From Schizochytrium sp. TIO01 (Eukaryota; Protista; Bigyra: Labyrinthulomycetes), in the NCBI GenBank assembly GCA_004764695.1, contig SMSO01000014.1, positions 5,590,845-5,654,844 of the forward strand: a stretch of DNA of 64,000 nt, in the 5' to 3' direction. Under the pieces are notes generated by a model. The model searched no databases and was not told the DNA's origin. It saw only the letters and a list, made by a program, of their open reading frames with translations. Made by a program: the position numbers and the translations under genes. Positions 910 to 37,800 of this stretch are shown here, piece after piece. Numbering within the stretch: position 1 is the first letter of the stretch; every line of letters starts with the position of its first letter.

Positions 910-1301
910 ATAGGCTATGAGCTTGGCCAGTGTACCACTCGTAAACATTGATTATGACAATAACTTAAGTAAAGAATTCTAATCATGACTGTTGAGAACC
1001 TGAACTCATTCGTGAACAAACGAGATCAAGAAACATGCGTTAAAAATAAATTCATGATACAGAGTCAGCCTACACGATTTTACTGCCAGGTACAGATTTG
1101 TAAGATAGCCTTTGTACGCTATGCACATCACCTTGCTATAAATTAAATAAATAAAAAATAAAAAATAAAGACTTTTGTATCCTTCTTTATTAGTCTAGTA
1201 TGATACATAAAGAGCAAGTGTGAATGGAAAAGGCATTACTAGAAAATCTTGGTCGTCCTCACACTACTTCCTTCTAATATTCTAAATCCAATGTAGCAAA
1301 G

Positions 1302-3449: not shown

Positions 3450-3599
3450 TACAGTTGTGATCGCAGATTCTGGACAGCTCAAGGTGGTTGGTGTTTTGCT
3501 TTGCCTGTTATAGCAAAAATATAACATCCTACAACTGGTGTCTTCTTAGTAGTAAATACCTGTTATCTCGATTTTAACTAGCATTGACATTATTAATAG

Positions 3600-4286: not shown

Positions 4287-5819
4287 TCAGGATGCTGTAT
4301 ACAGGTTTATGCCTCCGTTGTGTCGGCGCGATTTTCCAGAGATCAGTGGTTGTGTAGCAATGTTTTCGCTTAAGGCATGAACAACGTCATCCTCGAGCAC
4401 ATCCACGCGGAGAGAGCGTTCGCGAACATCCTTTTTGATACCCGCAAGGGCAACCAGCCCATCTTCTAAGAGCCGGCTCAAAAGAGTGTCACGAAAATCG
4501 CTAAAGGGCTGAGAAGGTAGACCCCACTCCCGCGCCATAGAAACATATTCTTTGAAGACATCAGCAACAAGCATTTTACGCTTACCGTCTCGCTGAGTGG
4601 CACGTTGTTGCCGAATGATTGCACACAATGCGTACTGTACCTGCAAAGGCATTTCTCTAATCGTTTTCACATGGCTTGACTCAAAAGCAGTTTTCATTGT
4701 CTTTAGAATCATAGGGGCGCTGACGAGGACAATGTCATCCCCTTCCTTCTTTTGGTCCGAGCCCTGCGCTGGTGAGCGCGACTTTTTGGCAACAGCTGCG
4801 TCGAGAAGCGCACGTTTACAGATATCAAGAGCCTTGCGAAGGTCACCAGATTTTGCTGCCACCTTCCGTGCACAAAGTTCGATGGCAATTGCTTCAAATC
4901 GTGCATTGCCCACAGAGGTTTCTTTGGCAAGACGTTCAGTGTGAGAGCTCAGGATATCTCGCAGCTCATCCTTCGTGTACGAGGGGAAGACCAGCATTTC
5001 AGAGGAGTAGCCCTCACGCAGGAGTTCTGGGAGAAACCTATCGTGCAAATTGACAGCATTTGCAATGCCAATGAGAATAAGTCGCGAACGAGGTAGATTT
5101 GCCCACCGGAAGATTTGATAAAGCACTTCTTGCCGTGCTGTCTGTGGTTTTTGCTGAGTAACCAGTTGATCAATTTCATCAAGCATTATTACGTAGAGGT
5201 TGCCTCTCTTGGCAGTCTTGGGACGGAAAAGGTCTTCTAAATCTGCTCTGGCAGCCTCTGGCGGAGTGCTCAAAGGGCACTCAACTCCAAGGGCCCGGAG
5301 TAGTGCGCCATATATGAGCGCTGGTTTTTCGAGTGTGTTACCATTGAGCTTACCAACATGAATCCGCGACCCCGTGGCAGATGATTTACGACCAAGTTCA
5401 GACTCCAGTACGTAGCGAACGCAAGCCGTTTTCCCCGTACCAGTAGATCCACAGACATAGAGGCTTCCACCCTGTGCTTCGTCAAGTCTCGAGCGTAGAA
5501 AACCGCGCACTTGAGCAATTTGTGTCTCGCGTCCAACGATACCGGCCTCAAGTGGGGATTGCTCATGCATCGTCGTCTGATTTTTAGATGAGCTAATAGC
5601 GGAGTTTGCAGACTGGTATTCTCGGCCTTTCCGAGTTGTTCTGGTACGTTTTACGGGAAGGTCTATGCTTGAGTCTGAGTCTTCGGCTGCTACATCTTCA
5701 TGGTTGCGTCGCCTGCTAGTTCGTGGTGCAGGGGCAGAAATACGGCGACGTTTAGGAACCTGTGATTCCTTCTCTACTTTTGTTGCAGCCCTCGTCCTTG
5801 CTCGTGTCGCTGGCATCAT
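4287..5819 (-). CDS. CDC6: Cell division control protein 6 (AAA+ ATPase, origin licensing)
   Basis: GSLYVCGSTGTGKT Walker A, LDEIDQL Walker B, LIGIAN sensor 1, FPSYTKDEL, AIELCARKVAAKSGDLRKALDIC, C-terminal winged helix. First ATG is 5819; the track start at 5891 is TTG. Confidence 0.93.
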   Translation of the reverse strand: MMPATRARTRAATKVEKESQVPKRRRISAPAPRTSRRRNHEDVAAEDSDSSIDLPVKRTRTTRKGREYQSANSAISSSKNQTTMHEQSPLEAGIVGRETQIAQVRGFLRSRLDEAQGGSLYVCGSTGTGKTACVRYVLESELGRKSSATGSRIHVGKLNGNTLEKPALIYGALLRALGVECPLSTPPEAARADLEDLFRPKTAKRGNLYVIMLDEIDQLVTQQKPQTARQEVLYQIFRWANLPRSRLILIGIANAVNLHDRFLPELLREGYSSEMLVFPSYTKDELRDILSSHTERLAKETSVGNARFEAIAIELCARKVAAKSGDLRKALDICKRALLDAAVAKKSRSPAQGSDQKKEGDDIVLVSAPMILKTMKTAFESSHVKTIREMPLQVQYALCAIIRQQRATQRDGKRKMLVADVFKEYVSMAREWGLPSQPFSDFRDTLLSRLLEDGLVALAGIKKDVRERSLRVDVLEDDVVHALSENIATQPLISGKSRRHNGGINLYTAS

Positions 5820-13689: not shown

Positions 13690-14952
13690 ATGACATCTAC
13701 TTCAAGTGGCGACGTGGGCTCCCGCGCCGCGAGCGTGGCTGCTGCCGCAGCAGCATCCATATACTCGCAGGAGGGCGCTAACGCTGGACCGCGCGCCGCG
13801 CAGTTGGCAAAGGAAAGGCAGCATTTACTCGAACAGGCGCAGCGCGAGCGGGATGAACTTATGGTCCGATCAGCTGTGCCAGACGCGGCGACACTGCGCG
13901 ACGTTGGGCGGCGCTTTCAGCGCGAAGTGTTGCAGACCGAGACCTCCGAACGCCCGTACGGTCTGCAGACGCAGCAAGAGTTCCTCGCAGCCCAGCAGCG
14001 CCAGGCCGAGCTTGAGGCAGGTCAACTTGCCGCTCTCGGCCATGGTCAGCTGAAGGGCCTCTCAAAGTCCTCCGATGGCGTCGCCACGAGCTCCAAAGAC
14101 GCAGAACGCAAGGAACGCAAGAAACGAAAGAAGGAGCGCCAACGTAAGGACCGTGCATTGCTCTCGTTCGAGGTTAATGGCGACGACAATGACTTTGAAG
14201 ACGGCCAAGACGATCTCAAAACCGCTCCGAAAGATGACGACTCCCCAGACAATGACGAATTCGAGTTCAAGAACGCCGACGATGAAAACAAGGCAATTGA
14301 TGACGAGAAGCACAAAAAGCGCAAACGCAAACGTATGAAAAAAAGTTCTACAAAGACCGGCTATGAAGAAGTGCGCGTGTGCAAGAACCCTGACGTGGAG
14401 ACTGGTTTCTTGCCGGACCGGGAGAGAGACGAACAGCGGAGACGCGAGGAGGAGCACCGACGTGCAGTTCGAGAGGCTGAGGAGGCAAAGGAGAAAGCGG
14501 AAATGCTCACAATCACATATAGTTACTGGACAGGTGAGGGTAACCGTGATCGAATCACAGTCACGAAGGGAACCACTGTGTCGGACTTCCTGGAAAAGGT
14601 GCGTCTTAAGATGATGAAAGTTTTTCCTAGCCTTCGTGCTGCGTCTGCAGATACTCTCATGTACATCAAGGAAGATATGATCATCCCGAACTTTCTTACC
14701 TTCTACGACCTGATCAAGTCCAATGCTCGTGGACTTACAGGGCCCCTGAATAAATTTACTGTAGAAGAGGATGTACGTCTCCAGGGTGATATCCGAGTGG
14801 CAAACCGTGAATCTCACGCTGGCAAGGTCTGTGATCGTCACTGGTACAACAAAAATAAGCATATTTACCCAGCCAGTCGCTGGGAGGTCTTTGACCCAAC
14901 AAAGCTGGAGGAAGAAGAGGAAAAGAAAAATACAAAAGCTATCTCCAAGTAG
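13690..14952 (+). CDS. FAM50: XAP5/FAM50 family spliceosome-associated nuclear protein
   Basis: KNPDVETGFLPDRERD, ITYSYWTG, LMYIKEDMIIP, TFYDLI, ESHAGKVCDRHWYNKNKHIYPASRWEVFDP. First ATG at 13690. Confidence 0.95.
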   Translation: MTSTSSGDVGSRAASVAAAAAASIYSQEGANAGPRAAQLAKERQHLLEQAQRERDELMVRSAVPDAATLRDVGRRFQREVLQTETSERPYGLQTQQEFLAAQQRQAELEAGQLAALGHGQLKGLSKSSDGVATSSKDAERKERKKRKKERQRKDRALLSFEVNGDDNDFEDGQDDLKTAPKDDDSPDNDEFEFKNADDENKAIDDEKHKKRKRKRMKKSSTKTGYEEVRVCKNPDVETGFLPDRERDEQRRREEEHRRAVREAEEAKEKAEMLTITYSYWTGEGNRDRITVTKGTTVSDFLEKVRLKMMKVFPSLRAASADTLMYIKEDMIIPNFLTFYDLIKSNARGLTGPLNKFTVEEDVRLQGDIRVANRESHAGKVCDRHWYNKNKHIYPASRWEVFDPTKLEEEEEKKNTKAISK

Positions 14953-15656: not shown

Positions 15657-16247
15657 CTACTGCAGATTTGCTGCGGCCATGGCATCTGCAAAGAGGCTCT
15701 CTGGACTTGATGTCTTCGGAAATCGTTTTGTACATTTAGCATCAAGCTTGGCAAATGCTGTCTCACCGACGTTCCATCCAATGGTGTGGCTTGAAACAAC
15801 AGGGTTGAGAAACTTATCGCGGGGGTTGTGAGTGAGTCGAACATTGCGCCTCGTGGCATCCTTATAAGATGTCATAGATGTATACTCTACAGGCTTGTAC
15901 TCACGCTCTCCGTGAAATGAAGGATGAACACAGCGTCCACGAGCTGCCCAGCATGCTTCAAAGAATAGCTCACGCGGGATCTCCTCTACATCTTCAGAGT
16001 GACCTCGCTTCAGTAGCTCTTCACGAATAAGCCCCTCGTCCCATACCGGCACGATTGGTCCTCGATACAGTGTGGTCAGAAACTTTTTAATCATGCTCAT
16101 ACCCATGTGATTGTGATTCTTTCCAGCAGTCTTAGTGATAGCAGCTTCAACATCATGTTTGGAAAAAAGCGTGAGATCAAGACCGTGTTCTGAGCTATCG
16201 CGAAAGTACTCCTGCTCACCTAAGAAAGTCAACCCGAAGAAAGCCAT
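15657..16247 (-). CDS. TEX49/SPMIP11-like axonemal microtubule inner protein
   Basis: N-terminal MAFFGLTFLGEQ and C-terminal S..Y...R....P...F..P..S..IGW...S....F.D pattern resemble TEX49/SPMIP11; there is an extra central helical domain. Confidence 0.55.
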   Translation of the reverse strand: MAFFGLTFLGEQEYFRDSSEHGLDLTLFSKHDVEAAITKTAGKNHNHMGMSMIKKFLTTLYRGPIVPVWDEGLIREELLKRGHSEDVEEIPRELFFEACWAARGRCVHPSFHGEREYKPVEYTSMTSYKDATRRNVRLTHNPRDKFLNPVVSSHTIGWNVGETAFAKLDAKCTKRFPKTSSPESLFADAMAAANLQ

Positions 16248-16748
16248 GATGTAAGATTTACCTTACTCGTACAGGTTGATTGCTCAAGACCAGAGTGCGA
16301 CTCCTCAATAAACCTCTTCACGTGAGTACCTGAGATTATGTTTTACTAGCATGCTCTCCTCGTCGCGTCAATAAGTCTCTTCCTTGGCACGTGCTTGTTC
16401 TCAAACCCACCAGGTTGCAACTTCCAGTGCACACTCGTCATAAAGTCGCTACATTCAGTAAACCCACCGAACAGGTCTATGTAGCTTTTTACTTTAATCC
16501 TAACCATGTGCTCGCGATGAAGATATAAATGAACCATTATCACCACCGTGATAATACTATTGATCAACGGATATAGGGTGTGTTTGCGCACCCCTATGGG
16601 GAACCTGTGGGGACTCCCCTTTCTTTCAATTTTTTTCAATTTATTGTTTTGTTTTCTGGGATTGATTGACGCTCATAGAATAGTAGGTACATACATACAT
16701 GATCATCATCTTATATCCTCTTCACCCATCATAACCATTCTCCAGAAC

Positions 16749-17933
16749 ATGGGTCGTCGTGCTACGTCGTGGAAGCGTGCGATCGCGTCCGCGCTGTCGT
16801 CATGGCCCGGTATTATCGCTGCCATCGCTGCTAGCAATGGCGGTCTTGTGATATTCGTGCGCAAAGCCGCAGTGGGCCTGCTAGTGGGTTTACTCAGGCT
16901 CCGCAAAACTGTATTTCTTCGCACACAAGGACTTGTTTTAGGCTCAGTAGGCTCTTGGCTTGGAAGTTATGTAAAGCATTACATAGAACTCCTGCGTTGG
17001 CGTAGCCGCGTGTTTTATCATCGGGTGCATCTCGTCTTGCTCTCATGGACCCCGGAAACTGCAATTTCCCACCGTGTTGAGAAACGCACGCTCTTTGAGG
17101 GCTCTCTTGAACAAACTATCATGAATGGCAACAGCGCCGCCACAAAGGTCTGTGCTCAGGCTGCTGCACAATGCTCTGTAGAAAATCCCTTCGTCACACA
17201 ACACCTTCCTCCAGGAGAGAGATACCAGATCTTGAATAACACTCTCAATTTGATTTCTTCTCTCACACCTACAGGGCACATCGCAGAGGACATATATCCT
17301 ACCTGTACAGTGGGATGCTGGTATGTATTTGCGCTGACTGTAGACAAGTATGCCTCGCCAGATCGCTTGGAGATACCAGATACCAAAATTCGGGCTTCTC
17401 TGGTCAAGGAAGAAACCGTACTATGGCTCTGCAACCCAGAAAACGCAAGAGAGATCAAACGCCTAGAAGAGGTATTCCAGCAGGATGATAATGAACGACA
17501 CTTAAATCGCTGGCGCTGTCTCTGTAAAATGGCGGAAATATACCAAAAGCAGGAGGAATGGACACTGGAACAGCACGGAGACCGAGTTTTGCATGTTTTC
17601 CGCGTCTATCTCTCAGTACCCATGGCACCGATTACAAACCAATCGACAGTATCCACCCCCCGTCTATCCACAGCACGACGTAAGTCTTTGCAGGCTACAT
17701 TTCAGGCACAGCACCCGCCAATTGCTCGTCACCAAACGTCAGATTCCCTGGAAGATACCTCGCCTCCCATCGAAGCAACCCCTCGTAGGAAAGACTCTGG
17801 ATTGGATAAGACTACCTCGTCACCAGAAATGTTTTCACCCTGGTCGCGCTCAGCCCGTACACGAGAATTCCGTCGAACACTTTCACAACCAGTTGACACC
17901 AAGACTTCACCATTGTTTATTCCAGATTCTTAG
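16749..17933 (+). CDS. Hypothetical protein with N-terminal hydrophobic segments and Ser/Pro-rich tail
   Basis: Long ORF with coding-like composition from MGRRATSW (16749); divergent from the TEX49-like gene; no family recognised. Confidence 0.7.
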   Translation: MGRRATSWKRAIASALSSWPGIIAAIAASNGGLVIFVRKAAVGLLVGLLRLRKTVFLRTQGLVLGSVGSWLGSYVKHYIELLRWRSRVFYHRVHLVLLSWTPETAISHRVEKRTLFEGSLEQTIMNGNSAATKVCAQAAAQCSVENPFVTQHLPPGERYQILNNTLNLISSLTPTGHIAEDIYPTCTVGCWYVFALTVDKYASPDRLEIPDTKIRASLVKEETVLWLCNPENAREIKRLEEVFQQDDNERHLNRWRCLCKMAEIYQKQEEWTLEQHGDRVLHVFRVYLSVPMAPITNQSTVSTPRLSTARRKSLQATFQAQHPPIARHQTSDSLEDTSPPIEATPRRKDSGLDKTTSSPEMFSPWSRSARTREFRRTLSQPVDTKTSPLFIPDS

Positions 17934-19144
17934 ATTGCTTGTTTGATGATATGTCGAAAAGGAGAACATGATGATAATGAAGAAGACTTTGTAAAGACAT
18001 CATCTACCCTTTGAGGCAATCATAGTCATAGCAGATATTTTGCTGTAACACTATAAATGTTTTAGATCTGACATATTACATGTGACAACCATGTTCTTCT
18101 GACGAAATTTAGTTAGAATACCCTACGAAAGATAAATATAACTTGAGACACTGTATCGGAGAGTGACCCAACTTTTGATGAATTGCTACATAAAGCTAAG
18201 TTAAGGTCTACTATTTATGTATCCGCTGCCATAGCTCAACTACTTTTATCCTTGACCACAAATACTCCTCTCCTATTGCACTACAAAAGGTGATGCAGGG
18301 TCCTGTTGTCTTTTCCATAGACCAGATCTTGCAATTGGGTTCTTTGTACGAGTCCTCCAATCATGGAAGGAAGTTCTTCGTGGGTTTTCTCGTGATAGCA
18401 TAATGAGTTTTTCACTCCCCCTTTAAAACCGAATCAAAAGCATGATCCCCTAATTAGAAGATCCTCACAATCTGAAGAGTTGCGAATCTCGCGTCTGAGT
18501 TCATCTTTTCGGAAATCCTATTTTGAAGCGCCCGGGGATATCAGGGATAAGAAGGAGACGAAGAATCGGTACACACGCACACCCTGAACAGAGTGAACAA
18601 AGTACGAGTTGTGGCATTTTAAAAAATAGCATGATTGCTATTCTTCTTCTGGTAAAATAGAAGCATAGCATCCCATTCTCACTAGTTCAAAGTCTGCGCC
18701 CCAGAATCCTGTAATTTAAGTAGAAACCCATGTCAAAGCGCGTAATGATTCTACCTCGTTGGCTTCCCATTTCGAGTTACCTTTTCACCTGTGGCACATA
18801 CTACTTACCTATACCTAGTTATGACATCTACTCTGAGATCCCACACTCAGTGAATCGTCAATAGTTACTCAGTATACTAAGGATTACATGAACTAGCTAG
18901 TACTACTAAAACTACTAGGTAGGTAGGTGCTACTAATGGGCCTTCAAAGGAGTTAGGTTGAAAATACCTCCGGCGGTTGCAACAAACTCGCACACAAGGT
19001 TTAGAGCAGAGTTTGAAGGTTTCAATTGTAGAGCAAACCTCGAAACTCAGTTGCAAGGTGATTTGCGCCCTGCCTGCGAGCGTTGGTTCTTTGACTGAGT
19101 CTAGCAGGTGAAGTTCTGCTCACTGAGTTTGTAGAGCGAGCAAA

Positions 19145-20581
19145 ATGATTGCTCGTATGATGGGCCTTTCAAAGCAAAACGGTGCTCAAGATGAGAACAC
19201 TGCCCCAGATGTGACAACCCAAGCCACGATAGCAGAGGGTGCGTCTTTGCGTAAAACTAGATCCCAAGCGCGAGCTGCTCAGCAAACTAAGAAGGCAACT
19301 CCGAAACGGAGTGCTCTCCGTGACACCACCAACAAAACGCCTTCTGTTGATCCAGGGGAACACAAGGACCATGAACCTGAGTTTACAAGCCCCAAATCTG
19401 AGGCCAGAATTCGGAAGAGTCTTTCCAGCGCTCGAGAAGACTGCACATCTGAGTCTGAGTTCAGCGAAAGTACAAACAAAGAAGACTCATACAGTCCGAT
19501 TTTCAAACCTCCAAAGAAAAACACTCAGCCTCTCAAACATTCTGAGGTATCCAGCTCTATTTCGCCTGGACCGAAAGCTCACCGAGACATATCAAATCCT
19601 CTTTTCGAGGCGGAAGAAAATGTATCACCATCTCACCAAAGCCTTTCAGGAAGCGCCGAGCTCAGTCCGAGCTCAGCTGCAAGCCAAGTGCGTCGGCGTC
19701 ATGGTGAAGTTGAGAATACTATGGCTAAGTCACCGGCAGTTTGCGGATCCTTAAACTTTTCAGATGTCTCTAGCTCTTACCACCAACCCCAATTTGGAGT
19801 ATGTCTGCTAAGAATGCCGCACAAGGTAATTTATCATGCTTCTGCGCGAGAGCTACTCGATACTGTCCCCATTTGGTGCAAACAGCGTCCTGTGAGTTCG
19901 GCACGAGTGTCAGAAATTGCAGACCGGTTTCGTGGTAAATTCGATTTCCCTGGTTCGATTTCAATCTTCAACTACAATGCTAGCCCCTCAGTAGGTCGTC
20001 CACAAAGTCATGCTATTTTTGACGGACAACACCGCTCTCTCGCTATGCAGAGGCTGCTTGATGAGGATCCTAATTTGAACTTTGACATTACCATCGAGGT
20101 TTTCCCTGTCAAAACAGAGGAAGATATCAAAAAGCTTTTTCGAGATCTCAACAAAGCAGAAAGCGTCCAGGAAATTGATACAACCGATGAAATCGAAGCA
20201 GAGGAAAAACTCTGCATCAACGAAGCAGTTAAAGCACTGCAAGAAAAATTTCCTGAGATGTTTGGCAATGAAAAATGTAGAGTTCCCAATTTGAACGATG
20301 CAAAATTGCGCAATGAATTGTATACTGCTGACATCACGAAAAACTTTCCTTTTATCTGGAAAGACGGTTCTTTCAAGAAAAGCCCCAAAGATAACATTTT
20401 GCTCCAATGCATTCTAGATGTTAACGACGAGATTTCACAGTGGGAGAATCACAAGTTCAAAGCACAATACCAGAAAAATGTGAAAAAGTGTCGTAGAAAC
20501 AATTGTTTTCTTGGAGTCGTGGAAGGATGGATCTATGATCTTCTAATCAAAAAACTAGAATCTTTAAAATTAAACAACTAG
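19145..20581 (+). CDS. DGQHR-domain (DndB/ParB-like) protein with disordered D-box-containing N-terminus
   Basis: WCKQRPVSSARVSEI, FPGSISI, AIFDGQHR (DGQHR at 20021-20035) and LFRDLNKA match the QR...DGQHR...F..LN signature. N-terminal RSALRDTTN. Confidence 0.8.
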   Translation: MIARMMGLSKQNGAQDENTAPDVTTQATIAEGASLRKTRSQARAAQQTKKATPKRSALRDTTNKTPSVDPGEHKDHEPEFTSPKSEARIRKSLSSAREDCTSESEFSESTNKEDSYSPIFKPPKKNTQPLKHSEVSSSISPGPKAHRDISNPLFEAEENVSPSHQSLSGSAELSPSSAASQVRRRHGEVENTMAKSPAVCGSLNFSDVSSSYHQPQFGVCLLRMPHKVIYHASARELLDTVPIWCKQRPVSSARVSEIADRFRGKFDFPGSISIFNYNASPSVGRPQSHAIFDGQHRSLAMQRLLDEDPNLNFDITIEVFPVKTEEDIKKLFRDLNKAESVQEIDTTDEIEAEEKLCINEAVKALQEKFPEMFGNEKCRVPNLNDAKLRNELYTADITKNFPFIWKDGSFKKSPKDNILLQCILDVNDEISQWENHKFKAQYQKNVKKCRRNNCFLGVVEGWIYDLLIKKLESLKLNN

Positions 20582-21063
20582 GTGGCATATGAACACCTTC
20601 CTGCACTAAATCTTTTAAGTATGCATTTCAACCACTCTCTTTTCTTATGCATTATATTTATAACTGCGCTACACAGAGTTACCCCTGGCAAACTTTCTTT
20701 TCGATTGTCCAAGCTCCTTCTTTTGCCAAAACTTATAAATATATAAATAAAAGACAATAGAAACATGTCTATCCTAATTCTGAATAGGATAGGACATGGT
20801 GAATAGAACGCAACACGTGACATCAATTTGGTACAGCAAATGTCGCAGTTGCGTTATGATGCGAAGCTTTCAAATATATAAGTTATCATTATTTTCCCGA
20901 AAAAAGCATATGTCTGCGAAGTCGTATTTTATCAACTTGTCTTAAAAGCGAATATTGTCATTATCCAACCTGCCTACTCTTCCTCCCAATTTATTGGGAT
21001 GGTTACGTCACAAATGAAAGGGCAATGAAACAATGCTAAAATAATACCAGTATTCATTCAGAT

Positions 21064-24000
21064 TTACTTTAACAGCATCTGTAAATCTCCATCTGATTCA
21101 GGCCATTCGGTATCAGATAGGCTGATTAATAAACTTTTCAAAGTTTGACTCAGTTTATCCGCAAAACGCGCTTGAGAAACATCAACGCGACTGCGAGAGT
21201 TAGCTAAACTCAAAAACGCAGGACCCAACGTCTCACGCACCAAGGCGCACAAATCACTGCGCGAGGCTAGTGTTTGTAGGCCATCCTGTAAAGCAGACAC
21301 AGCTGCAATGCGAACTTTGAAGTTCTCATGTTCTGCTGCTTGGTCAAGGAGAACTTCGATGAACTCTCGAGAGTGAGGGTTTCCGACTGACCGTGCCAGA
21401 ATCAGGCCAATGGAGGCGCATGCACTCCACTGGACTTTTGCTGAAGCATCTCCTTTGCCCGCTGCACCATCAAGTAAAGCATTTGTGACACGGGCCGCCA
21501 ACTCAGGATCAAGTCGTTGAGAAGAGAAACAGACAGTCAGAGAGCCAAGTGCGCGGTAGCAGGGGGCTGCCACCTTGTCATGGTCAGGAACATGAGTGAT
21601 GCATGCTTCAACCATGGCATGTCTAGTCTCTTCAGAAATAAGCTCGTCCCAGGAAACCGACTTGTTTGAATCATAGACCAAATTAGCTAATGCTGTTGCG
21701 GCGCGGGCGCGAACCTGAAGGTTTGATACATCTAAAGCAAGAAGTATAAGTGGAGAGGTGTCCTTCAGGAAGTCGGCTGTTCGAAATTCTGGGACCAAAG
21801 CCATGGCGCTCAGAGCTGTTAGTGTAGCACGCTGGGTTTCCTCCTTTCCACCATATGCAGAAAGAATGCCACTCACACATTCTCGACGCTGAGCGTCAGA
21901 GACTAGAGCCCAGCCTTCCGTGCGGATCTCTGATACACAGACAGCGGCACAACTGCGCACATCCGGGTCGGTATCACGAAGTGCACGAGGTAAATGAATG
22001 GAGATAATTTCATTCCATCCATTCAGATCGGCAGTAATCGGTGGTTCACTAAGTTTGTCGCGACGAAGAATGCGCTCCACAAGACCGACCGCAGCGCGGC
22101 GACTTGACGGTAGACGAGAAGCAAAACACTGCATAAGAACACAATGCGTGGCACCCCACAATGAGGTGCGACTTACCTCGCGAGCATATTGCTCGCAGAG
22201 AGATCCAACGAGCGCCATGGCCCACTCGCTGGACGCGAGATCTACCCCTTGTAGTGTCGGTACGAGGTTATTATTTACAAAGTCAGCCACACTCTCTAAT
22301 CTCTCCTTTGGAGCGCTTACCAAAGCTGCACAAGTGCCCGCAGCTCCCATGCGGACCTTGTCTTGTACCTTGGAATCAGTGAGACGCTCGCAAATAGCCT
22401 TCCCGCAACCCTTTAAAAAGTGCGACATAAAAAATTGCTCATTTCCCCTCACTTCATAAGGCACAGCACGTAGCATTGTCATGGCACATTGATGTGCCTG
22501 TTCAAGTGTGGTGGGATTTCGCTCATGACCACCTAGGACTCGGCCCAGAGCGTAATGGATTTCTTCTACAATATGTGATATTTTTACACTCATAGGAACA
22601 AAAGCACCGGCATTTTTAGCAGCAGGGCGTGGCTGGGATAGCCACACTCGCACCGGACTGTTGCTAAGCAGTTCTGATAAAAAATGAAACCCTGCAGCCC
22701 GAACACGCGGCTGCTCATCAAAGACAACAACAGTTAGCAAATTGACCGATTGCAAGTTCAAAATACATCCGTTACGTTGAGGAAGAAAGCGTTCCCACTG
22801 CGTTTGCATTATTTTTCGATCAACTTGGCATAAAACCCCCAACACCTCCAATGCCGAGAGACGGAGTTTTTCAAGTTGTTTTAGCACCCTAGACGAGCTT
22901 GACTTCCGTTCAACATCAGAATCAGACATTTCTGATTCCGAGGCAGACATATCGTTCTGCTGTCGAATACGTTTCTCCTCTTTACAAACCTGCATGGAGT
23001 CGCAGACAAGTCGGCATAACGATCCTATGAGCCATTGCAGCTTTGCTTGAAGAAATTTACTTCCGAAAGCGAGCAGGCTACCCTGAATAACGCGCAAGGC
23101 GGAGTGCAGAACTTTGAGTTTTTGAAGACGTCCATCAACGGTTTGAGTAGTAGGGTTGCTACCAGGTTTTTCCCATGCTTCGTCTAGCAGAAGGGTGATA
23201 TAATGCAAAGCGAGACGGTTTACCTCTGGAGCTTGAGATTCTTTCAAAGCTTTGCGCTGCAAGAGGTTGCCAAGACACCCAAATGCAGTTCCCACGCACA
23301 CCATATCTCCAGAGCCTTCGCTGTCTAGAACCTCGCGCAAGAGAGTCTTCACGATGTTGTCTTCAAAAGCTGAGCACCTAGATCCATCTAGGAATAAAAT
23401 GAATGATAGTGCTTGAAGTGCCTCTTGACAACCTGCTATATCATCGACGCAATGATGTATATCTCCATTAAGAAAGGGCACTACCACTCCAAGCGATTGC
23501 GGAGTAAACTCGAGGTGTTTCTTTTGTGCAAAATAAGTAACTAACTGAGCTGCACCCCTGCCTACGTCCTCCTGATGTGGCTGCGGCGAAGCCTCACCAT
23601 CTTTATGACTAGTAGATTGTGAGGATTTCTGCACAATTGTCTCAACATCCTCTATGTTATCATCTCCTCCAGCAAGCATTGCCTTGTTGCGTAACTTTGC
23701 GAGCTCCCAATTTGCCAACAAATTCACAAGATCTCCGCAATCCCTACGGGAGATCACCGAGCTCGGGAACGTGAGTTTTGATTTCATGACCTCCAATGCA
23801 ATTCCACGCGGACTTCCCCGCATTACGCGAGCTGCGGAAACCCATGCATTCCACTTAGCACGTTCCTGTTGAAGAGCTGCATTTCCACTGCTCGCTCGTA
23901 GGCTCCTCGAAAAAGTAAACTTTCGCACGCTTGACGAGGTATTTGATTTTAAATTATGCCCGCCAAGACTTGGGGGTCTCCCACGAATGCGGCCTGGAGA

Positions 24001-24942: not shown

Positions 24943-27900
24943 TTACTGGGGAACTTTCTTACGGCGTGCACGCTCCTGTGCCAGCTTTTTACGAAGCTGC
25001 GCAGCCGTAGTCACTTGTCCCGTGGTGTTAGTACTGGTCGGTGCTGAAGCATCCGACTCCAAGGCCTTTTGCTTTTGAACTCCCGTGTAATACTTGGGAT
25101 CGGCCAGGCGTTCGTGGATGGGTTTGGCAGTTACAGACATGGCGAAAGCGCTGCCGGCAGTGATGATCTCGTCAGAAGAGTTTTCTTTTTCAGGGTTGTC
25201 ATCCGGAGTTCCGGGGGAACCACTTCGTTGCATAGATGAAGTACTACCACTATCTGTTGCATCACCTTTTTGGCCGCTACGCTTCTGGGATTCCCAGGCA
25301 AGTTGCCGAGCATGAGCTCGTTCGGGGCGTCCAGACTCATTATTTCTGTACAAGCCACCCACTTCAGATTTATACGTGCCGTTCTCTGTCTTAATTTCCT
25401 TTACATGAGGACCGGATGTTGTACTGCACATTGAGCCTGTAGAATCACGTGTTCGGTTAGCGCGCAACTTCGATTCCTGGGCGCGGCGGTTCGAATAGGA
25501 CTCCGTCATACGTGTAAATGACGGCGAGTTTGAGTCCGAACCGGTGGATGAGCGCCGAGACGCACGGGGGCTCGAGGCCGACTTACCAGTCGAGCGAGGG
25601 CTACCTCCCCTGGCATTCTTGCGCTGGATCTCTGCCAAAGCTGCCGGGTTCAAGGTGAGACCATCCACTGTGGATTCAGGGTGGGCATCTGTGAGTTGCA
25701 AAGAGTCAACCTCTAGCTCAGTAAAGGGTTTCACGACAAGTTCATCTAGAGTTTTTTCAACAGCATCGCCAAGACGTGTCTGCTGATCGATGATCTTGCG
25801 CTTGTGAATCCCCGTAAAATTCTCTGCGTTAGTTAAGCGATCAAAGACGCCGGGCGTACGAGCATGGGGCTGGAACGCCTGGACTAATGGGTTAGAAGCA
25901 AAATCAGCAGCCGAGGAGTAAGCACTGCCACTACTGCTATTGCTGTTGAAACTGGCGTTGTTGTTGAAACTGGTGCCAGCAGTATTGATAGCACCAAGGG
26001 CTTGCTGCTCCTCAGCCAGAGTTTGGGCTCTCTCCGCAGCACGTCGAACAGCTTCTGATTGCTGTGGTGTGCTGACCATGTTTGAGAAAGCAATGTTAGG
26101 ACCAAGGCTGGAGCGGCGGGCTGAGTCAAGACTACGTGGACCAGAGAAGAACGCAGATGATGTCCCCGAGACTTGGAGCTGTCGAACCTGTTCTTCCAAG
26201 GCTCGCAACTTTGCCTCATTCATATTTTCCTCGACGCCTGTGTCGGCACTAATGCCGTGCTTCTTAATAAGCGCCAAAAGACGTTGGTTTTCTTTGAGCA
26301 AGACATTGCACAGCTCACTGGATTCGCCAAGTTTGTCCTGGAGAACTCTGGCAGTGGCCGGTGTCCCATTCACAGCAGCCATAGGCGACCCAGGGTGTCC
26401 AATGGAATGTCTTGAAAGATTCGGAGTTCCAGCAATCGATGATGCCGGTGAGGTGCCCCCATTTCCGGGCATTGACGGCAGCAATGATTTGCGGCGCTGT
26501 AGATCTCGGCGTGTTCTCGACTCATCCATGTACGCTTGTTGCTTAAGCCTTTCGATGGTTTGCTTCAATTGAGACTTGGATCGCTTCGCATCGACGTACA
26601 TTTGCAACAACTCCTGGAAGACAGATTTCGCCTCCTCCAGAGAGTTGAGCTCCACCGGAAACATTGCTGCAATACTTTTGCTCGTTGGCGACCTGGTGTT
26701 GTCGTTGTTTTCCGACAATTGCTTGTTTCTACGCATATCTTCACCATCATCAACTTCTGCGACCTCCTGTTCTTCGTCTTCGTCTTCCTCGTCATCAGCG
26801 CTGATCTTGGCCGCTGCCGCCTCGCATTGCTTTTTGTGAAAGATGATCTCATATTCTGCTGCCTCCAGTCGCTGTTCAAGCTCTTCCATAGCCTCCTGTT
26901 CTTCGGGCGTCATCTTAACGTTTACAGTGAGCTCTGTTTTAGGTTTGGAAGCGCCTTGTGCATTGCTTGACGTCAACGAAGCTGACGCCGACAAAGCTGA
27001 AGCTGCCGCAGCGGTCGAAGATGAGGGCGGTGTAGCGATCGCTGCAGCTCCTTCGCGTGAAAAAGATGCGGAGGCCGCCGCAACGGGAGTCGAATGAGCT
27101 GAGTTCGAAACAGAGGTCAAGCCAGTACTCGGTGTGCCAGATTTTGGGCTCACGAAGAACGAGCTCAAGCACTGCTTCTCTTTCACTGCGGGAGCTGCAG
27201 GCGGCTGAGCCGGTGATGCATCGCTACCGCTGCCGACTGTTATGCTCCTGCTAGTCTGGCGATCCGCCGCAATACCATGGGAGGAGGTAAGAGCTTGAGC
27301 AACATTTTCTTCTGCAATCTTGGCCCGTTGCTCTGCAGAACGCTTACGTTCTTCTAGCTCGCGACAAAGCTGTTCCTTGCGCTCAATAGCAGCCTGTTTT
27401 TTGGCCAATGAGTGGTGCAGCCGCTCCACTTCCTCATCGTGTTTGATGCGCTCGCGAGCCCACTTGTCAAGGAGCTTACGCTGCTTACGTTCCTTCTCCG
27501 TGAGTTGTTTGTTGAAGGACGTTAAGCGTTGTGCCTGTCGCAGTTTGCGCTGCATGGCGGTTACCTGCTCGGTTTTTTGGCGAAGAAGTCTCTCATCACG
27601 GGTGTTGCGCATCTGTAACTTTTGTTTGTCTTGAGCAAGTACGCGTTGCTGTTTGCGAAGACGTGCAATTTCTTGCTTGCGCTGTTGCGCCTCTTCGCGG
27701 TATTTCTTCGCATTCTCCTCCATGCGGCGCTGGTACTCTACCTTTTGCTTTTTCATACTATCAATTTCACGTTGGATCTTCTGCTCCTTCACTTGCCATT
27801 TGTTTGCCATACGCTTTGCATCAGCAAGCTGCTTGCTCTCCTTCTCAAGGTTCTTGAGGCGCTCCATCTTGTCCTTAAGCTGGATCCGCAGCTTTGTGAT

Positions 27901-30147
27901 CTGGGTTCGCACAGCGTCACTGGAGGATTTGGAGTTTGATGATTCGAGTTCCTTGATCTTAGCGTCCAAAGCGTCACGTTGTTGTTGAGTGACCTGGACT
28001 TCGGCATTCATTTCTGCCATCTTAGCTTCGTAGTGCGCTTTCATGGCCTCAAACTTTTTACGCTCCTCAACGACCTTCTTCATAATCATCTGCTTTGAGC
28101 GTAAAGTCACATCATAGCTCTGGACCATGCTTCGGTAGGACTCCTGAGTCTTGTGAAACTTCTCCTTAAGTTCTCTCGTCATCTCGTCATCATCGTCGTT
28201 CACTTCCACCAGAGAAGAGTCGGCATCAATGTCCTCCATGGCAACTAAGCCCGGCATGCTATCGTCTTCGTCTCCGTCATTGTCTTCGTCACCCTCATCT
28301 TCCTCGTCCAAATCGTCAAAACCTCCACCGAGAGCTCCGTTTGATGCTCCTGCGCCAGAGCTACTGGGCCTGTGAAACCCTTCAAGGCTGCGCCGAAGAC
28401 GTGAGTTACGAACAATCTCCTTTTCAACTTCATCCAAAGAATCTGCAAAAGTAAACTCGCTCTGCAGCACCTTGAGTTCCTTGCGAGCTTGTGAAAGCTG
28501 CCAGTCACTAGTTTCTAGCTGCCTCTGGAGCTCTTCGATTTTCCGAAGATAGTTTGCGTTGGACTGAATTGCTTCATCGTCCATCTCGATATCTTTTGCT
28601 TCGCCTTCGCCCCCAAATTTACTCTTGTAAAAATCGACCTGAGCAGCTGCCATGATATACTTTTCTTGGACATCAGATCTAGATCTTTTCTCTCGTTCTA
28701 AGACTTCGTTGAGTCGCTGAATTTCTGATTCTGCACAGCTTGCTCTCGACAAGGCAGCGTCCAATTCTTGTCGAACTTGCCCAGTGTCGGCTCCGCTTGC
28801 TCCGCCCATCCAATCAAAGCCCCCGGCGGCATTTCCTGAGAAACTAGCAAAATCCATTCCTGCAGGGAGCTCTCCGTTCTGGCCGTTACCTGAGAGCTGC
28901 AGCTTGAGTTGTTGGATTTGTGCTTTAAGCATGGCAATTTGTGATGAGTTCGGGTCACGATTGACGATGGGTTTGTTTTTGATGTTTCTTGCACGATTCG
29001 CGTATCGCAGCGCGTTCAAAGTTTCTTCAAAATTAGCATCTGCGGGCGAGACGCACGCAATCATAAGAGTACGACTATTTCCTCCAAGGGAATCTTGTAA
29101 CATGCGTGTGAGTTTCGAGTCACGGTATGGCACATGTGTTCCCTTAGGTTTCGTTTCATCTCCCAGAGCGGAAATTACATTGCCAAGGGCTAGCAGGCCC
29201 TTGTTGATATTGATACCCTCTTTAAGTCGTGTGCCGGTGGCTCCGGTTCGCTTTGCGCGCTCGGATCCTGCTAAATCGACGAAGTGAAATTTAGCAATAC
29301 GATATTCTAAGTCCTCTGATGAGGATGATGTTGATGATGAGGTTGCCGAAGACGGCTCGCCTTCAGCGCCGGCATTATGTTGTTCACCCGCATTTTGCTG
29401 TCCATCCTCATTACTGTTCGTAGCTGAAGTACTTGCTGCAGCTGCTGAAGAATCAACAGCCACAGGGAGGTGTTGTTCAACGATGATAGTGAAGATAGCG
29501 TGTGACCGCGATGAGTGCAAGTTCATTTCGGTGCTACCAGTGGTACGACATAAAGATCCGCGCTCAAGGGCTTCATACATGGATTGAGTTGATTTGACAG
29601 CCTCTTCAACAGCGCCGACAATCTCCAATCCTTTGTCAGTCTCGCGGATGCTGACGACCTTACCCTCTGAAGATCCTGCCGGGTCAAGTAAGTCTCGAAT
29701 GTCTTCGCCGTAAATCTCCAAAAACTGCACACGAAGGTAGAACTCTGCGCCTGGGTTCGCTGCCTTTTTATCTTCAATGATCTCGAAGATTTCTGACATA
29801 GCGCGTGGAATCACGCCGAGCTTACTATCGTCATCATCGACGAGAGAATCTGTGGATGTGCCCATGGTGTATGTCTTACCACTACCTGTTTGGCCGTATG
29901 CAAGCACGGTGGCATTGTAGCCTTCAAAGAGTGACTTCACTAGAATTGAGACGTTTCTCTCATAGATCTCGTGTTGGTGGGAGGCCTGGCCGAAGACCTG
30001 GTCAAAGGTGAATTGTTTCTCCTTACCCATCATGACAAGCTCTGTCTCGCTCATGGGTTTTACGCATTCGCTGCATCGCTCGAGCTTCTCCTTTGAAAGT
30101 AGCGGCCGAATCCGCACCGCCACGCGGATATTCGTGGACTCGCTCAT
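24943..30147 (-). CDS. Kinesin-4 family motor (KIF4/KIF21/KIF27-like)
   Basis: GYNATVLAYGQTGSGKT P-loop, SSRSH, FHFVDLAGSER, GININKGLLALGNVISALG, HVPYRDSKLTRMLQDSLGGNS, long coiled-coil stalk with MKKQKV. First ATG at 30147 (MSEST). Confidence 0.93.
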   Translation of the reverse strand: MSESTNIRVAVRIRPLLSKEKLERCSECVKPMSETELVMMGKEKQFTFDQVFGQASHQHEIYERNVSILVKSLFEGYNATVLAYGQTGSGKTYTMGTSTDSLVDDDDSKLGVIPRAMSEIFEIIEDKKAANPGAEFYLRVQFLEIYGEDIRDLLDPAGSSEGKVVSIRETDKGLEIVGAVEEAVKSTQSMYEALERGSLCRTTGSTEMNLHSSRSHAIFTIIVEQHLPVAVDSSAAAASTSATNSNEDGQQNAGEQHNAGAEGEPSSATSSSTSSSSEDLEYRIAKFHFVDLAGSERAKRTGATGTRLKEGININKGLLALGNVISALGDETKPKGTHVPYRDSKLTRMLQDSLGGNSRTLMIACVSPADANFEETLNALRYANRARNIKNKPIVNRDPNSSQIAMLKAQIQQLKLQLSGNGQNGELPAGMDFASFSGNAAGGFDWMGGASGADTGQVRQELDAALSRASCAESEIQRLNEVLEREKRSRSDVQEKYIMAAAQVDFYKSKFGGEGEAKDIEMDDEAIQSNANYLRKIEELQRQLETSDWQLSQARKELKVLQSEFTFADSLDEVEKEIVRNSRLRRSLEGFHRPSSSGAGASNGALGGGFDDLDEEDEGDEDNDGDEDDSMPGLVAMEDIDADSSLVEVNDDDDEMTRELKEKFHKTQESYRSMVQSYDVTLRSKQMIMKKVVEERKKFEAMKAHYEAKMAEMNAEVQVTQQQRDALDAKIKELESSNSKSSSDAVRTQITKLRIQLKDKMERLKNLEKESKQLADAKRMANKWQVKEQKIQREIDSMKKQKVEYQRRMEENAKKYREEAQQRKQEIARLRKQQRVLAQDKQKLQMRNTRDERLLRQKTEQVTAMQRKLRQAQRLTSFNKQLTEKERKQRKLLDKWARERIKHDEEVERLHHSLAKKQAAIERKEQLCRELEERKRSAEQRAKIAEENVAQALTSSHGIAADRQTSRSITVGSGSDASPAQPPAAPAVKEKQCLSSFFVSPKSGTPSTGLTSVSNSAHSTPVAAASASFSREGAAAIATPPSSSTAAAASALSASASLTSSNAQGASKPKTELTVNVKMTPEEQEAMEELEQRLEAAEYEIIFHKKQCEAAAAKISADDEEDEDEEQEVAEVDDGEDMRRNKQLSENNDNTRSPTSKSIAAMFPVELNSLEEAKSVFQELLQMYVDAKRSKSQLKQTIERLKQQAYMDESRTRRDLQRRKSLLPSMPGNGGTSPASSIAGTPNLSRHSIGHPGSPMAAVNGTPATARVLQDKLGESSELCNVLLKENQRLLALIKKHGISADTGVEENMNEAKLRALEEQVRQLQVSGTSSAFFSGPRSLDSARRSSLGPNIAFSNMVSTPQQSEAVRRAAERAQTLAEEQQALGAINTAGTSFNNNASFNSNSSSGSAYSSAADFASNPLVQAFQPHARTPGVFDRLTNAENFTGIHKRKIIDQQTRLGDAVEKTLDELVVKPFTELEVDSLQLTDAHPESTVDGLTLNPAALAEIQRKNARGGSPRSTGKSASSPRASRRSSTGSDSNSPSFTRMTESYSNRRAQESKLRANRTRDSTGSMCSTTSGPHVKEIKTENGTYKSEVGGLYRNNESGRPERAHARQLAWESQKRSGQKGDATDSGSTSSMQRSGSPGTPDDNPEKENSSDEIITAGSAFAMSVTAKPIHERLADPKYYTGVQKQKALESDASAPTSTNTTGQVTTAAQLRKKLAQERARRKKVPQ

Positions 30148-34885: not shown

Positions 34886-37800
34886 ATGACTGCAGAGCGG
34901 AAGTCCGCTCGCAAGCGCACGGCGACGACGTGGTTCGTTGCTGGACCTTCAAAGCGATTATCTGCAGATGGCGATGATGACGAGGACGAAGAACAGCTCA
35001 TTGGGAACACAGGGCGCGGAATTGAGGACGAAAACGAGCTTGAGGACGAAAACGAGGACGATGATGAGGATGACGACGATGATGAGGATGACGAGGACGA
35101 TGATGAGGATGCTGCCCCTGCTCGTAAGAGGGCTAAGGACTCTTCCAAGTCAACTTCCGCCTCAAAGGGCAAGAAATCAAAGTCCGGGTCTAAGAAATCC
35201 TCCAAGATTAAGAAGCGCAGCAAGAAACACGCTCGCGTAGAGCATGGTGAAATTTTAGCGGCACTTGAGGATGAGGATGCTTCTGTTGTCCAGCTTGTGA
35301 GAGATGTTATTGATGATGAGGATGAAGAAGGTCTCACACCAGAGAAACTGAGCAGGAAACTTGTGGGCTTTCTGTTGGAGTGCAGCGGAGTGCCTAAAGA
35401 AGCAGCCACGAATGCCTTGGATAGTGAAAATCATCATGAGAACGACGTGTTGGAGGTGAATGCCGAGGAGATCAATGAACTTGCGGAAGAAATCTCTACT
35501 GACGCTGATGCATTTTTTGACAAGTACCCTCTTCAGGCATGGAAACGCTTTGACGATCGTTTCGAGCAGTTCTGGAAGGTCTTTATGGAAGAGAGTGACA
35601 CTCGTCTTGTTCTTGTTGATAAGAAGGACCCTTTCTTTGAAGTACTCCCAGGTCTTGTGCGATCTATTGCGGCTATGGCATCGGGACCTATGCTCTCTTT
35701 CAGACATACTGCAATGGAGGCCTGCGCGCACATCTCTCGTGGGCTCCTGTCGCTTGCAAACACAGAACTGGCCAAGCTCTCCATGAGCTTGAAACAGCTC
35801 TCAAGTAAAGCTAGCAAGGGCCCGGTGGAAAAGGCTACTAAGGATGCACAAAAGGCCCTCTTTAGCTTTTTGAAACCTGTCAACAGCAAGAAACCTGACC
35901 TCGCTCCTGTTCAGAATGCGCTTGGGAAGGTTGTCCAGTCCACCAGCAGTGGATCAGGCCGTGCACCGAAAGCGCTTGTGGACCTTGCCAAGAGCTGCCA
36001 GCAAATGACATCGTGCGTGCAACACCTGTTAAACATGGCCAGTAAACTTTTCTACAGATTAACCGCAGACCGCAGACAAGATATCCACGAGGAGGTTCGT
36101 CTTAGTACGCTCGCGGCCATTGAGGCATACCTTGAGTACATGCCATCCTACTTCCTCTGGATCAGTCGTCCTTACATGGCTGATTTGTTGCATGACCCGA
36201 GCCCCAAGGTTCGAGAGCTTTCGTGCATGGTAGTTGCCCATGCCATGGCTTCTACGGGCCCTGTTTTAAGCATGGAAATCGACAACAAAACGCAATCAGA
36301 TATTCTAAAGAATATTCTTGCTGTGAAAACCGATTGGGCTGAGCGCATCATCGATGACTTTACTAACGAACTTATCTCTGATGTAAACTCTGCTGTCATT
36401 GAAGCAGCAATTCGTGCAGTAAGCTCCATGCTTGACATGAATCGTAAAGCCGTTCAGATCTCCCACGAGCATGCTGTTGAACGCTGCCTCTGCTATGCAG
36501 ATACTGCAAAAGAGAACTTGGAGAACGTACGTCGTGCGGCTGCCGAATTCACGCTCAAAAGCCGACCAGAGCTTTCGGATCAGACTTCTGCCTCGCGCTC
36601 AGGTGCCTCCAGCATTGCACAAGCCAGATTGCAACTTGCCTCGATGCTCGAACTTCTTGCTAACTTAGCTGGTTCTCGGTTATCAAGCCAAGATGATGCC
36701 GATGATAATGCTAGGGGTGATGACGAGGAAGACGAAGAGGATGATGAGGATGATGAAGAGATGCAGGAGGAGTTTCTTGACATCACCGACAGTACCAGCT
36801 ATGGTGGCACCTCAACGGGTGAGGTAACCAAGACTCCAAAGGTTCTACCTTTCGAAATTCTCGCCAAGGTCGTTGAGGCCTTTTGGAATATACCCTCATG
36901 TACATTCCTGAGGAACTGGGAAGCTCTGTGCAATATGCTGCAAAGCTATGGTGAGAACAATGTTTCTGGCAATCTGGGACAAATGCGTGCACAGACTTTA
37001 GCGGGCATTCTCCGCGCTGCCTCGGACTGCATTTCTGCTGATCCTAGCTCACCTTTGGGCACTGGAGCAGGCCGAAGCAAAATATCTAGTCGCCGGCGCA
37101 ATATGGCCGCCAAGCGTGCAGCCGAAGATCAGGAATCCGCTCTGCATGAAGCTGTGGAGCGTTCTCTAACTGATCTTATTATCACTTTCCGTACTGAGAA
37201 TGCTGTGTTGCAGAATCTTATTCCGCTTTGCGCCAAACTTGACCTGTCACGTTTTACTCGTGATGTGCAACGTGAGAGCTTGAGTAAGCTTGTTAAAACC
37301 CTTGCGCACATCTTTCTCAAACACACTGATGTCGTTCTTTTGTATGAAACAGGGCGCGTGCTCGTGGAGTCATTCGCCGCAAGCGAGGAAAATCCCATTA
37401 GCCATGAGGTAGCCACTGTCTTAGCCGACACGAACCAGGATATGTTGACAAGTATCCGAAACGCTGCTAGAGAAATTGAGACAAGTACAAGTGCTGATAT
37501 GGAAGAGTCGATTACAACACTTGGCAATGGATTGCGTCGTCTTAGTATGCTTCTGCGTATTGACCCTGATCGTAAACCACTTCAGCTGCCCACACATCAT
37601 TCTGTTTGTGATGCTTTGCGCGCACTCAACCACACTCGCTCTGGCATTTTGGCAGATGGCCTTGTTCTGCTGGAGCTTGACCTTGTATCTGCATTCCGCC
37701 AAGCCTCTGCAGCCTCGCTTAAAACAGGGGGAAGTGGGGGTAATGATGATGATGACGAGATGATCAATGAAGATAACGATGATGATGAGACTAGGGATGC

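Follow-up and report, generated by a model that had tools for sequence, protein, structure and literature searches.

The window analysed here is a 64,000-nucleotide stretch of contig SMSO01000014.1 of Schizochytrium sp. TIO01. As initially annotated, its positions 19145-20581 hold one open frame on the plus strand that encodes a protein of 478 aa, in which a low-complexity tail precedes a folded region. The features are as follows.

19145..20581, plus strand: gene of the 478-aa protein, a single open frame in which no intron was seen
19145..19792, plus strand: low-complexity tail, residues 1-216, with 8 SP/TP sites and without Pfam match
19190..19207, plus strand: degenerate KEN-type motif DENTAP (xENxxP), residues 16-21, from the sequence
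19298..19309, plus strand: full CDK consensus TPKR, residues 52-55, whose Arg is common to the D-box
19307..19333, plus strand: D-box RSALRDTTN (RxxLxxxxN), residues 55-63, from the sequence
19613..19630, plus strand: second degenerate KEN-type motif EENVSP, residues 157-162, from the sequence
19793..20164, plus strand: putative ParB/Srx-fold DGQHR domain, residues 217-340, from profile matches and a model, with the predicted dimer interface
19883..19888, plus strand: QR motif, residues 247-248 (R248 in 108/108 rows)
20021..20035, plus strand: DGQHR motif (GxxR phosphate-binding box), residues 293-297, invariant in 108/108 and 125/125 rows
20138..20152, plus strand: FxxxN motif, residues 332-336 (N336 in 108/108 rows)
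20183..20578, plus strand: C-terminal helical domain, residues 347-478 (model pLDDT 93), common to giant-virus proteins

The genomic setting is that of a host gene. The neighbouring genes encode XAP5, a HEAT-repeat protein, a KIF21A/kinesin-type motor, Cdc6/Orc1, SCC3/STAG and a class II tRNA synthetase, all host proteins, and the flanking XAP5, HEAT-repeat protein and kinesin genes are single long ORFs too. GC content of the gene is like that of the window, along which it is even, so that neither a viral genome nor an endogenous viral region was recognized around the gene. The interval 16000-22000 is covered by a single contig of an independent run, and the contigs of four sequencing runs, whose RNA status is a guess, show no joints across the gene. 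Moreover, a gene-sized contig covers 19035-20633, and in three runs that are guessed to be RNA contigs start at 18994-19035, with one contig end at 20633, which gives a weak hint of transcription. Given these neighbours, the even GC, the spanning contig, the jointless runs and the gene-sized contig ends, the gene belongs to the host, has no intron and is probably transcribed. The window holds 18 ORFs of at least 200 aa, and the Pfam scan took in the query and 16 others, leaving outside an ORF at 14062-14862 that lies antisense within XAP5. The 16 other ORFs proved to be host genes or to have no family; no dnd gene was found among the scanned ORFs, in line with the initial annotation, and no ParA either. 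Cdc6/Orc1, the kinesin-type motor and SCC3/STAG (4287-5819, 24943-30147 and 34886-39148) lie within 20 kb of the gene, a closeness that is probably due to chance in a compact genome. Separately, the plus-strand ORF 16596-17933 encodes 445 aa without Pfam family, and contigs of three runs start inside it at 16705-16750, which suggests a later start codon for this ORF.

The C-terminal part had been described as a DGQHR (DndB/ParB-like) domain of about 240 aa. The folded part is real, but it spans about 262 aa (residues 217-478) and comprises two domains rather than one. All the motifs listed at the time are in frame and in place, namely QR, FPGSI, IFDGQHR (291-297), LF-x2-LNKA (LFRDLNKA, 331-338) and RVPNLN...LRNEL; the QR pair, the DGQHR pentapeptide and FxxxN are the motifs of DGQHR domains (PMC4619093). 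Profile scores are less uniform. Pfam DndB (PF14072) gave a narrow pass with 30.4 bits for a cut-off of 29.1, over residues 289-338 only (50 residues), and none of the 13 homologues scanned passed this cut-off. TIGR03187 DGQHR reached 39.8 bits, below its cut-off of 58.85, TIGR03233 DndB equivalog reached 18.4 bits against 328, and canonical ParB (PF02195) gave no match at E up to 1. The intact motifs thus mark a DGQHR domain, on which the PF14072 and TIGR03187 cut-offs disagree. A DndB orthologue is ruled out because the family scores are far below cut-off and dnd genes were not found among the scanned ORFs. Sulfiredoxin is also ruled out, as DGQHR stands in all rows without the catalytic Cys of F[GS]GCHR, and Tox-ParBL1 is ruled out by motif only, its [ST]...[NT][RT][RT] signature being absent.

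Sequence searches of the PDB gave nothing useful. The AlphaFold2 model of residues 217-478 (pLDDT 91.6) had PadC as the top structural match of its first half (Z 8.2, rmsd 3.0, 97 aligned), followed by KorB (Z 7.7), Srx (7.7), pNOB8 ParB (7.5) and then SerK, SspE and BrxU. The top 9 VIA structural rows were all ParB-superfamily chains, and Foldseek rows 1-19 were of the ParB/Noc/KorB/Srx type, yet every E value was above 0.001. The predicted fold thus agrees with the ParB/Srx superfamily membership initially proposed, and residues 217-340 would form a ParB/Srx fold with intact QR, DGQHR and FxxxN motifs. By fold and motifs, the best reading is that the protein may work like a ParB/DndB nucleotide switch, although the nucleotide specificity of the ParB fold is not predictable (PMC12704722).

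The second domain is helical and carries the conserved residues F373, C378, P381, R389, N427, K448, G457 and W462, among which C378 and R389 are nearly eukaryote-specific (each in 1/40 virus-like rows). It resembles proteins of Marseillevirus LCMAC202 and Pithovirus LCPAC304 (TM 0.62 and 0.59). When the domain was folded alone, its best solved match had Z 5.2 with no clear family, and no HTH match was listed in this structural search. With 22 K+R and 21 D+E the domain is not basic overall, and an Atlas lead to DUF6551 (0.90, 89 shared features) is weak. Modelled as two copies with ATP and Mg, the protein scored 0.49, the best of three controls reaching 0.00, with at least 68% of contacts agreeing between runs and pLDDT of at least 81. 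The contacts run through the ParB-like domain, including R254, G270, H296 and residues 334-341. The mark applied was reached by 21/30 solved homodimers and 0/23 monomers; 17/29 eukaryotic dimers reached it, but only 1/7 of those for which no earlier relative had been solved, so the prediction may reflect ParB dimers already known to the model. A homodimer formed through the ParB-like domain is thereby predicted by the model.

The exhaustive homologue search yielded the best 150 of 403 representatives at E 0.001 or better, and most of the homologues listed have a long N-terminal tail and the C-terminal domain. A tree of the 125 of 154 proteins with full domain separated type A (28 rows, with the query) from type B (97 rows). 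Thirty proteins were looked up, and eight eukaryotic clusters bear an organism name, the remaining ones being taken as eukaryotic. The named members of type A belong to Hondaea, Mucochytrium, Thraustochytrium sp. LLF1b, Chrysochromulina tobinii and, loosely, Incisomonas, and those of type B to Hondaea, a Bacillariaceae diatom and the choanoflagellate Helgoeca. Domestication of the domain had been envisaged for this gene. The protist family to which the query belongs is a wide one with two types, both of which occur in Hondaea with one member seen of each, and a one-off domestication is therefore not what is observed. Type B outnumbers type A among the matches listed, and we found no published description of it. 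In one type B protein of Hondaea (P0130, GBG33864.1), the domain is annotated within a ribokinase, which may be a real fusion or a merged gene model, and the SAM-like look of P0181 found no Pfam confirmation.

Likeness to proteins of large DNA viruses had also been pointed out, and the nearest non-eukaryotic relatives in the collections searched were indeed found there. In the Atlas, the nearest clusters are 97-100% viral, for the most part Nucleocytoviricota, and the top predicted viral structures belong to Marseillevirus LCMAC202 (A0A481YWW6, Foldseek E 8.6e-14), Pithovirus LCPAC304 (A0A481Z845, E 3.3e-12), Megaviridae, Gaeavirus, Bodo saltans virus and CroV. The eukaryote profile aligned with the stand-alone viral profile over 240 columns and both domains (E 1.5e-41), and five bacterial-type DGQHR proteins aligned to the first half only (profile positions 26-149 of 257). 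Stand-alone homologues sit on GVMAG contigs, and the cluster of HNH-fused homologues includes Virus NIOZ-UU159. Scans of viral contigs with the query and the eukaryote profile, of metagenome contigs with the Hondaea protein, and of phages and plasmids by tblastn found no relatives; the P0191 group gave one 37% partial match to viral contigs. Type B forms a clade (100/96) in a careful tree of 51 rows, where type A is an unresolved grade with a long-branched virus-like group placed among it (87/40, the bootstrap not being settled), and quicker trees gave the eukaryotes as one group at 84-88. Just 2 of the 40 virus-like tree rows are tied directly to a virus. Transfer may have run in either direction. 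On these sequence comparisons, the gene is best placed in an uncharacterised family common to giant viruses, of which it represents the eukaryotic branch.

A nuclease domain was found neither in the query nor in the nine other eukaryotic members scanned (9/9), and homologues gave weak GmrSD_N matches. A large virus-like group (P0193, P0198, P0199 and P0261-P0289) has the same two domains plus an HNH nuclease, and resembles a compact GmrSD-type enzyme in giant viruses. On one GVMAG contig (L001), a plus-strand ORF at 871-3513 lies two genes upstream of the viral DGQHR homologue and encodes a fusion of a protein kinase domain with a cyclin N-terminal domain (880 aa).

The N-terminal tail of the query is likely disordered, judging from its composition. 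The D-box and the six SP/TP sites named in the initial annotation are all present, together with two further sites, TPSV and SPSS, and TPKR is the only full CDK consensus. That account did not include the KEN-type motifs DENTAP and EENVSP; a true KEN box is absent from the query tail, which has degenerate forms only. Degrons of the xENxP type have been described, and [DNE]KEN is the published KEN preference (PMC3690534). The query also joins a looser D-box core and a TPxR..A[LMFQ] motif in TPKRSALRDTTN. Over 20,000 shuffles of the 216-aa query tail, RxxLxxxxN arose in 1.9%, at least 8 SP/TP sites in 2.6% and one full CDK site in 43%.

Comparison of the tails between the two types was more informative. 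Tails of at least 80 aa with a full domain start and an initial Met were kept and two near-duplicates dropped, giving 31/45 type A and 82/109 type B proteins, with 300 shuffles each. KEN was present in 9/31 type A tails (shuffle 0.7) versus 5/82 type B tails (shuffle 4.5), within the first 40 residues in 8/31 versus 0/82, and as [DNE]KEN in 5/31 versus 0/82. Full CDK sites were present in 22/31 type A (shuffle 9.3) versus 7/82 type B tails (shuffle 12.7), and the type A counts of KEN or CDK sites were reached in 0/300 shuffles. Any strong degron was seen in 13/31 versus 9/82. The looser D-box core (9/31 versus 2/82) and the TPxR..A[LMFQ] motif (10/31 versus 0/82) also differed, both patterns having been set after seeing the sequences. 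The strict D-box, in contrast, does not separate the types, being found in 4/31 type A (shuffle 1.2) versus 7/82 type B tails (shuffle 2.7; Fisher p 0.49), and RxxLxx[ILV] is not type-A-specific (8/31 versus 20/82). Basic NLS-like clusters showed no type A enrichment (4/31, shuffle 3.9). The motifs recur among tails without BLAST similarity to each other or to the query; p values for the tails nevertheless overstate, since A versus B is a single evolutionary contrast and the tails of close relatives are not independent. Thus the CDK and APC/C-type signals proposed from the query seem to be kept in homologous tails, with KEN and CDK sites as the family-wide signal; the strict D-box exceeds the shuffles in type A but not the level of type B.

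The N-termini of type B point elsewhere. According to our own simple rules, which are heuristics rather than a trained predictor, organelle-type or myristoylation N-termini occur in 54/82 type B versus 5/31 type A proteins, including signal peptides (15/82 versus 0/31), mitochondrial-type presequences (35/82 versus 5/31) and MG myristoylation starts (5/82 versus 0/31). The five myristoylated-looking type B proteins fit poorly with a DNA-only role. Subgroups can be seen within type B, which are mitochondrial-like, plastid-like (signal peptide then Phe) or myristoylated (e.g. P0046, P0102, P0114 and P0130).

Expression data were available for a haptophyte homologue, C. tobin Ctob_006015, which falls in the same 90% cluster as the type A protein P0005. 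Its FPKM was 8.0, 8.4, 1.2, 3.6, 7.8, 9.1 and 10.9 at D6, D10, L1, L4, L6, L10 and D1 (PMC4580454 S1), a 9-fold swing from 1.2 (L1) to 10.9 (D1), and division in this alga spans L10-D6 (PMC4580454). Among 11 division genes searched by name, log r was 0.95 with CKS1, 0.92 with CDK1, 0.88 and 0.86 with condensin subunits, 0.87 with Top2 and 0.82 with FtsZ; the remaining values were 0.70, 0.60, 0.50, 0.45 and -0.02, with weak or no correlation for MCM5 (0.60), CDC6 (0.50), BUB3 (0.45) and a gene annotated cyclin B2 (-0.02). Five core genes were also averaged, having been picked once their profiles had been viewed, and r with this mean was 0.93. As background, 39 rows were read, 6 were dropped as unexpressed and 33 kept; 0/33 reached r 0.93 with the core mean (best 0.89), and an L1 minimum occurred in 10/33, a 9-fold one in 0/33. 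The homologue mRNA thus cycles with CDK1, CKS1 and condensin in one light-cycle series of one species, with seven time points of one value each. The expression table was covered up to row ~7,900 of ~16,800 genes, and a single family member is present in these rows. The published model of Ctob_006015 (501 aa) is without the first 57 residues of its cluster mate P0005, and these extra 57 residues hold an RxPL D-box-like motif and SP/TP sites.

Taken together, we consider it quite probable that the protein is under cell-cycle control. More tentatively, we hold it plausible that the protein is a dimeric NTP switch acting on DNA, with CDK and APC/C setting its timing. It would be synthesised ahead of division, then phosphorylated by CDK and, at mitotic exit, destroyed by APC/C. 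By analogy with ParB/DndB biochemistry, NTP, most likely ATP, might bind at QR/DGQHR/FxxxN and close the dimer, and its hydrolysis would reset it; DndB is described as a repressor that depends on ATP, and both ATP and GTP are bound by a DndB-like protein (PMC12704722). Following degron rules, the KEN-type and D-box motifs may recruit Cdh1/Cdc20, with phosphorylation of T52 beside the D-box timing this recruitment. The target would be DNA or chromatin, with type B paralogues serving mitochondrial and plastid DNA. This is the weakest step; action on DNA or chromatin is nevertheless likely, counting the organelle-type N-termini of type B, the viral HNH fusions and the DndB biochemistry.

It is rather unlikely, though to be weighed seriously, that the protein is a cell-cycle-regulated nucleotide or phosphoryl enzyme and not a DNA switch. 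Its activity would resemble that of Srx, SerK or ParB-fold NTPase effectors, with hydrolysis of NTP/dNTP or phosphate transfer onto a protein or small molecule, in cytosol, mitochondria and plastids, and CDK and APC/C control would still hold. The Srx match (Z 7.7) ties with PadC and KorB, with SerK next, but the catalytic Cys of the Srx GCHR motif (PMC4619093) is Gln here. Copies placed in several compartments by the heuristics, myristoylated forms included, suit a soluble enzyme, as do the want of a listed HTH match and of NLS enrichment, and DndB itself might degrade or limit nucleotides (PMC10853773); on the other hand, the HNH fusions of viral relatives point to DNA, and it is the ParB-like domain that makes the contacts of the predicted dimer.

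We hold it improbable that the protein serves as an antiviral or conflict effector which was exchanged with giant viruses. As such it would deplete nucleotides or sense viral DNA, its degrons curbing a toxic activity during part of the cycle. Its nearest relatives are giant-virus proteins, bacterial DGQHR, GmrS and SspE domains have a defence role (PMC4619093, PMC10853773) and the viral HNH fusions resemble GmrSD-type enzymes, but the eukaryotic members scanned are without nuclease domain. In addition, the C. tobin homologue tracks CDK1/CKS1 in uninfected culture, residue conservation is strong, the neighbours are ordinary host genes, and members are seen in ones, with one per type in Hondaea and one in the C. 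tobin rows covered. We also regard as quite improbable that the tail motifs are incidental in a Ser/Pro-rich disordered region, that cell-cycle control is absent from the protein and that the C. tobin profile is a light-cycle effect. The frequency of a full CDK site in query-tail shuffles, a strict D-box as frequent in type B and an L1 trough common to 10/33 background genes would all agree with this, but the type A excess of KEN (9/31 for 0.7 expected, mostly near the N-terminus), the 0/300 shuffles and the recurrence of motifs in tails without mutual BLAST similarity argue against it. Finally, although the virus-like domain and the missing intron might speak for it, the gene is very improbably an assembly contaminant or a passive viral gene of endogenous kind, and an endogenous virus was rejected, given the host neighbours that are single long ORFs too, the even GC, the spanning contig of an independent run and the homologues in several eukaryotic groups.

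The observation made from this gene is thus confirmed as real and is broader than first seen, and a dimeric NTP switch timed by CDK and APC/C is the reading we carry forward. As had been suggested, the family appears undescribed: we found no published description of it, of the paralogue split or of the degron link in print, although the datasets of a 2025 ParB-fold survey or Maindola et al. 2014 may list these proteins. The term DndB/DGQHR was absent from the available content of four supplements of an Aurantiochytrium proteome (PMC12221091), and the 'ParB' text matches in the accessible text of PMC3493329 and PMC11512752 were unrelated words. The domain call is already on record, since the Hondaea protein carries the UniRef name 'DGQHR domain-containing protein'. 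Sulfiredoxin is the main eukaryotic representative of the ParB fold according to the 2025 survey (PMC12704722; bioRxiv 2025.10.10.680097); this survey searched with PF02195 (PMC12704722), which the query does not match, and therefore likely missed the family. The gene likely encodes an undescribed protist cell-division protein. More speculatively, and unlikely as a whole, the family could be an ancient ParB/DndB-type NTP clamp, common with giant viruses and kept in parallel copies by many protists, among them stramenopiles, haptophytes and a choanoflagellate, with one copy for nuclear chromosomes under CDK and APC/C and others for mitochondrial or plastid DNA. If true, a ParB-fold switch of DNA segregation or replication would be part of the eukaryotic chromosome cycle and would have been lost from animals, yeasts and plants. 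A protist ParB-like family with a CDK- and APC/C-wired form and organelle-aimed forms points to a possible division factor that the usual model organisms do not have. A handle on an uncharacterised giant-virus gene family is gained as well, and the claim is directly testable in thraustochytrids and haptophytes.

Among known systems, the giant-virus 'DNA-sulfur modification-associated' proteins, which carry automatic names only, share both domains and the same motifs, but they are stand-alone (about 260 aa) or HNH-fused (Megaviridae forms) and have no degron tail. DndB/DGQHR proteins (PF14072, TIGR03187, TIGR03233) share QR, DGQHR, FxxxN and the ParB superfamily, whereas their bacterial rows align to the N-terminal half only and the query is a nuclear protist gene with no dnd operon. 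With the ParB/Noc/KorB/PadC CTPases the query has in common the predicted fold (Z 7.5-8.2), the GxxR box and a dimer predicted through the nucleotide-binding domain; it differs in having no PF02195 match, no HTH match listed for the second domain and no ParA among the scanned ORFs. Srx and Tox-ParBL1 are likewise cases of a ParB fold in a eukaryote, but Srx is a one-domain protein in this respect, with a catalytic Cys in its GCHR, and Tox-ParBL1 bears its [ST]...[NT][RT][RT] signature in place of DGQHR (PMC3482391). GmrSD, SspE and BrxU (DUF262 + HNH) have a similar ParB-like NTPase domain, together with the nuclease domain that the query and the other eukaryotic members scanned do not have. 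Lastly, APC/C substrates of the cyclin B/securin type resemble the query in that the folded domain is preceded by a likely disordered N-terminal tail bearing D-box, KEN-type and CDK motifs; they have no sequence kinship with the query, whose place beside them is suggested by these motifs.
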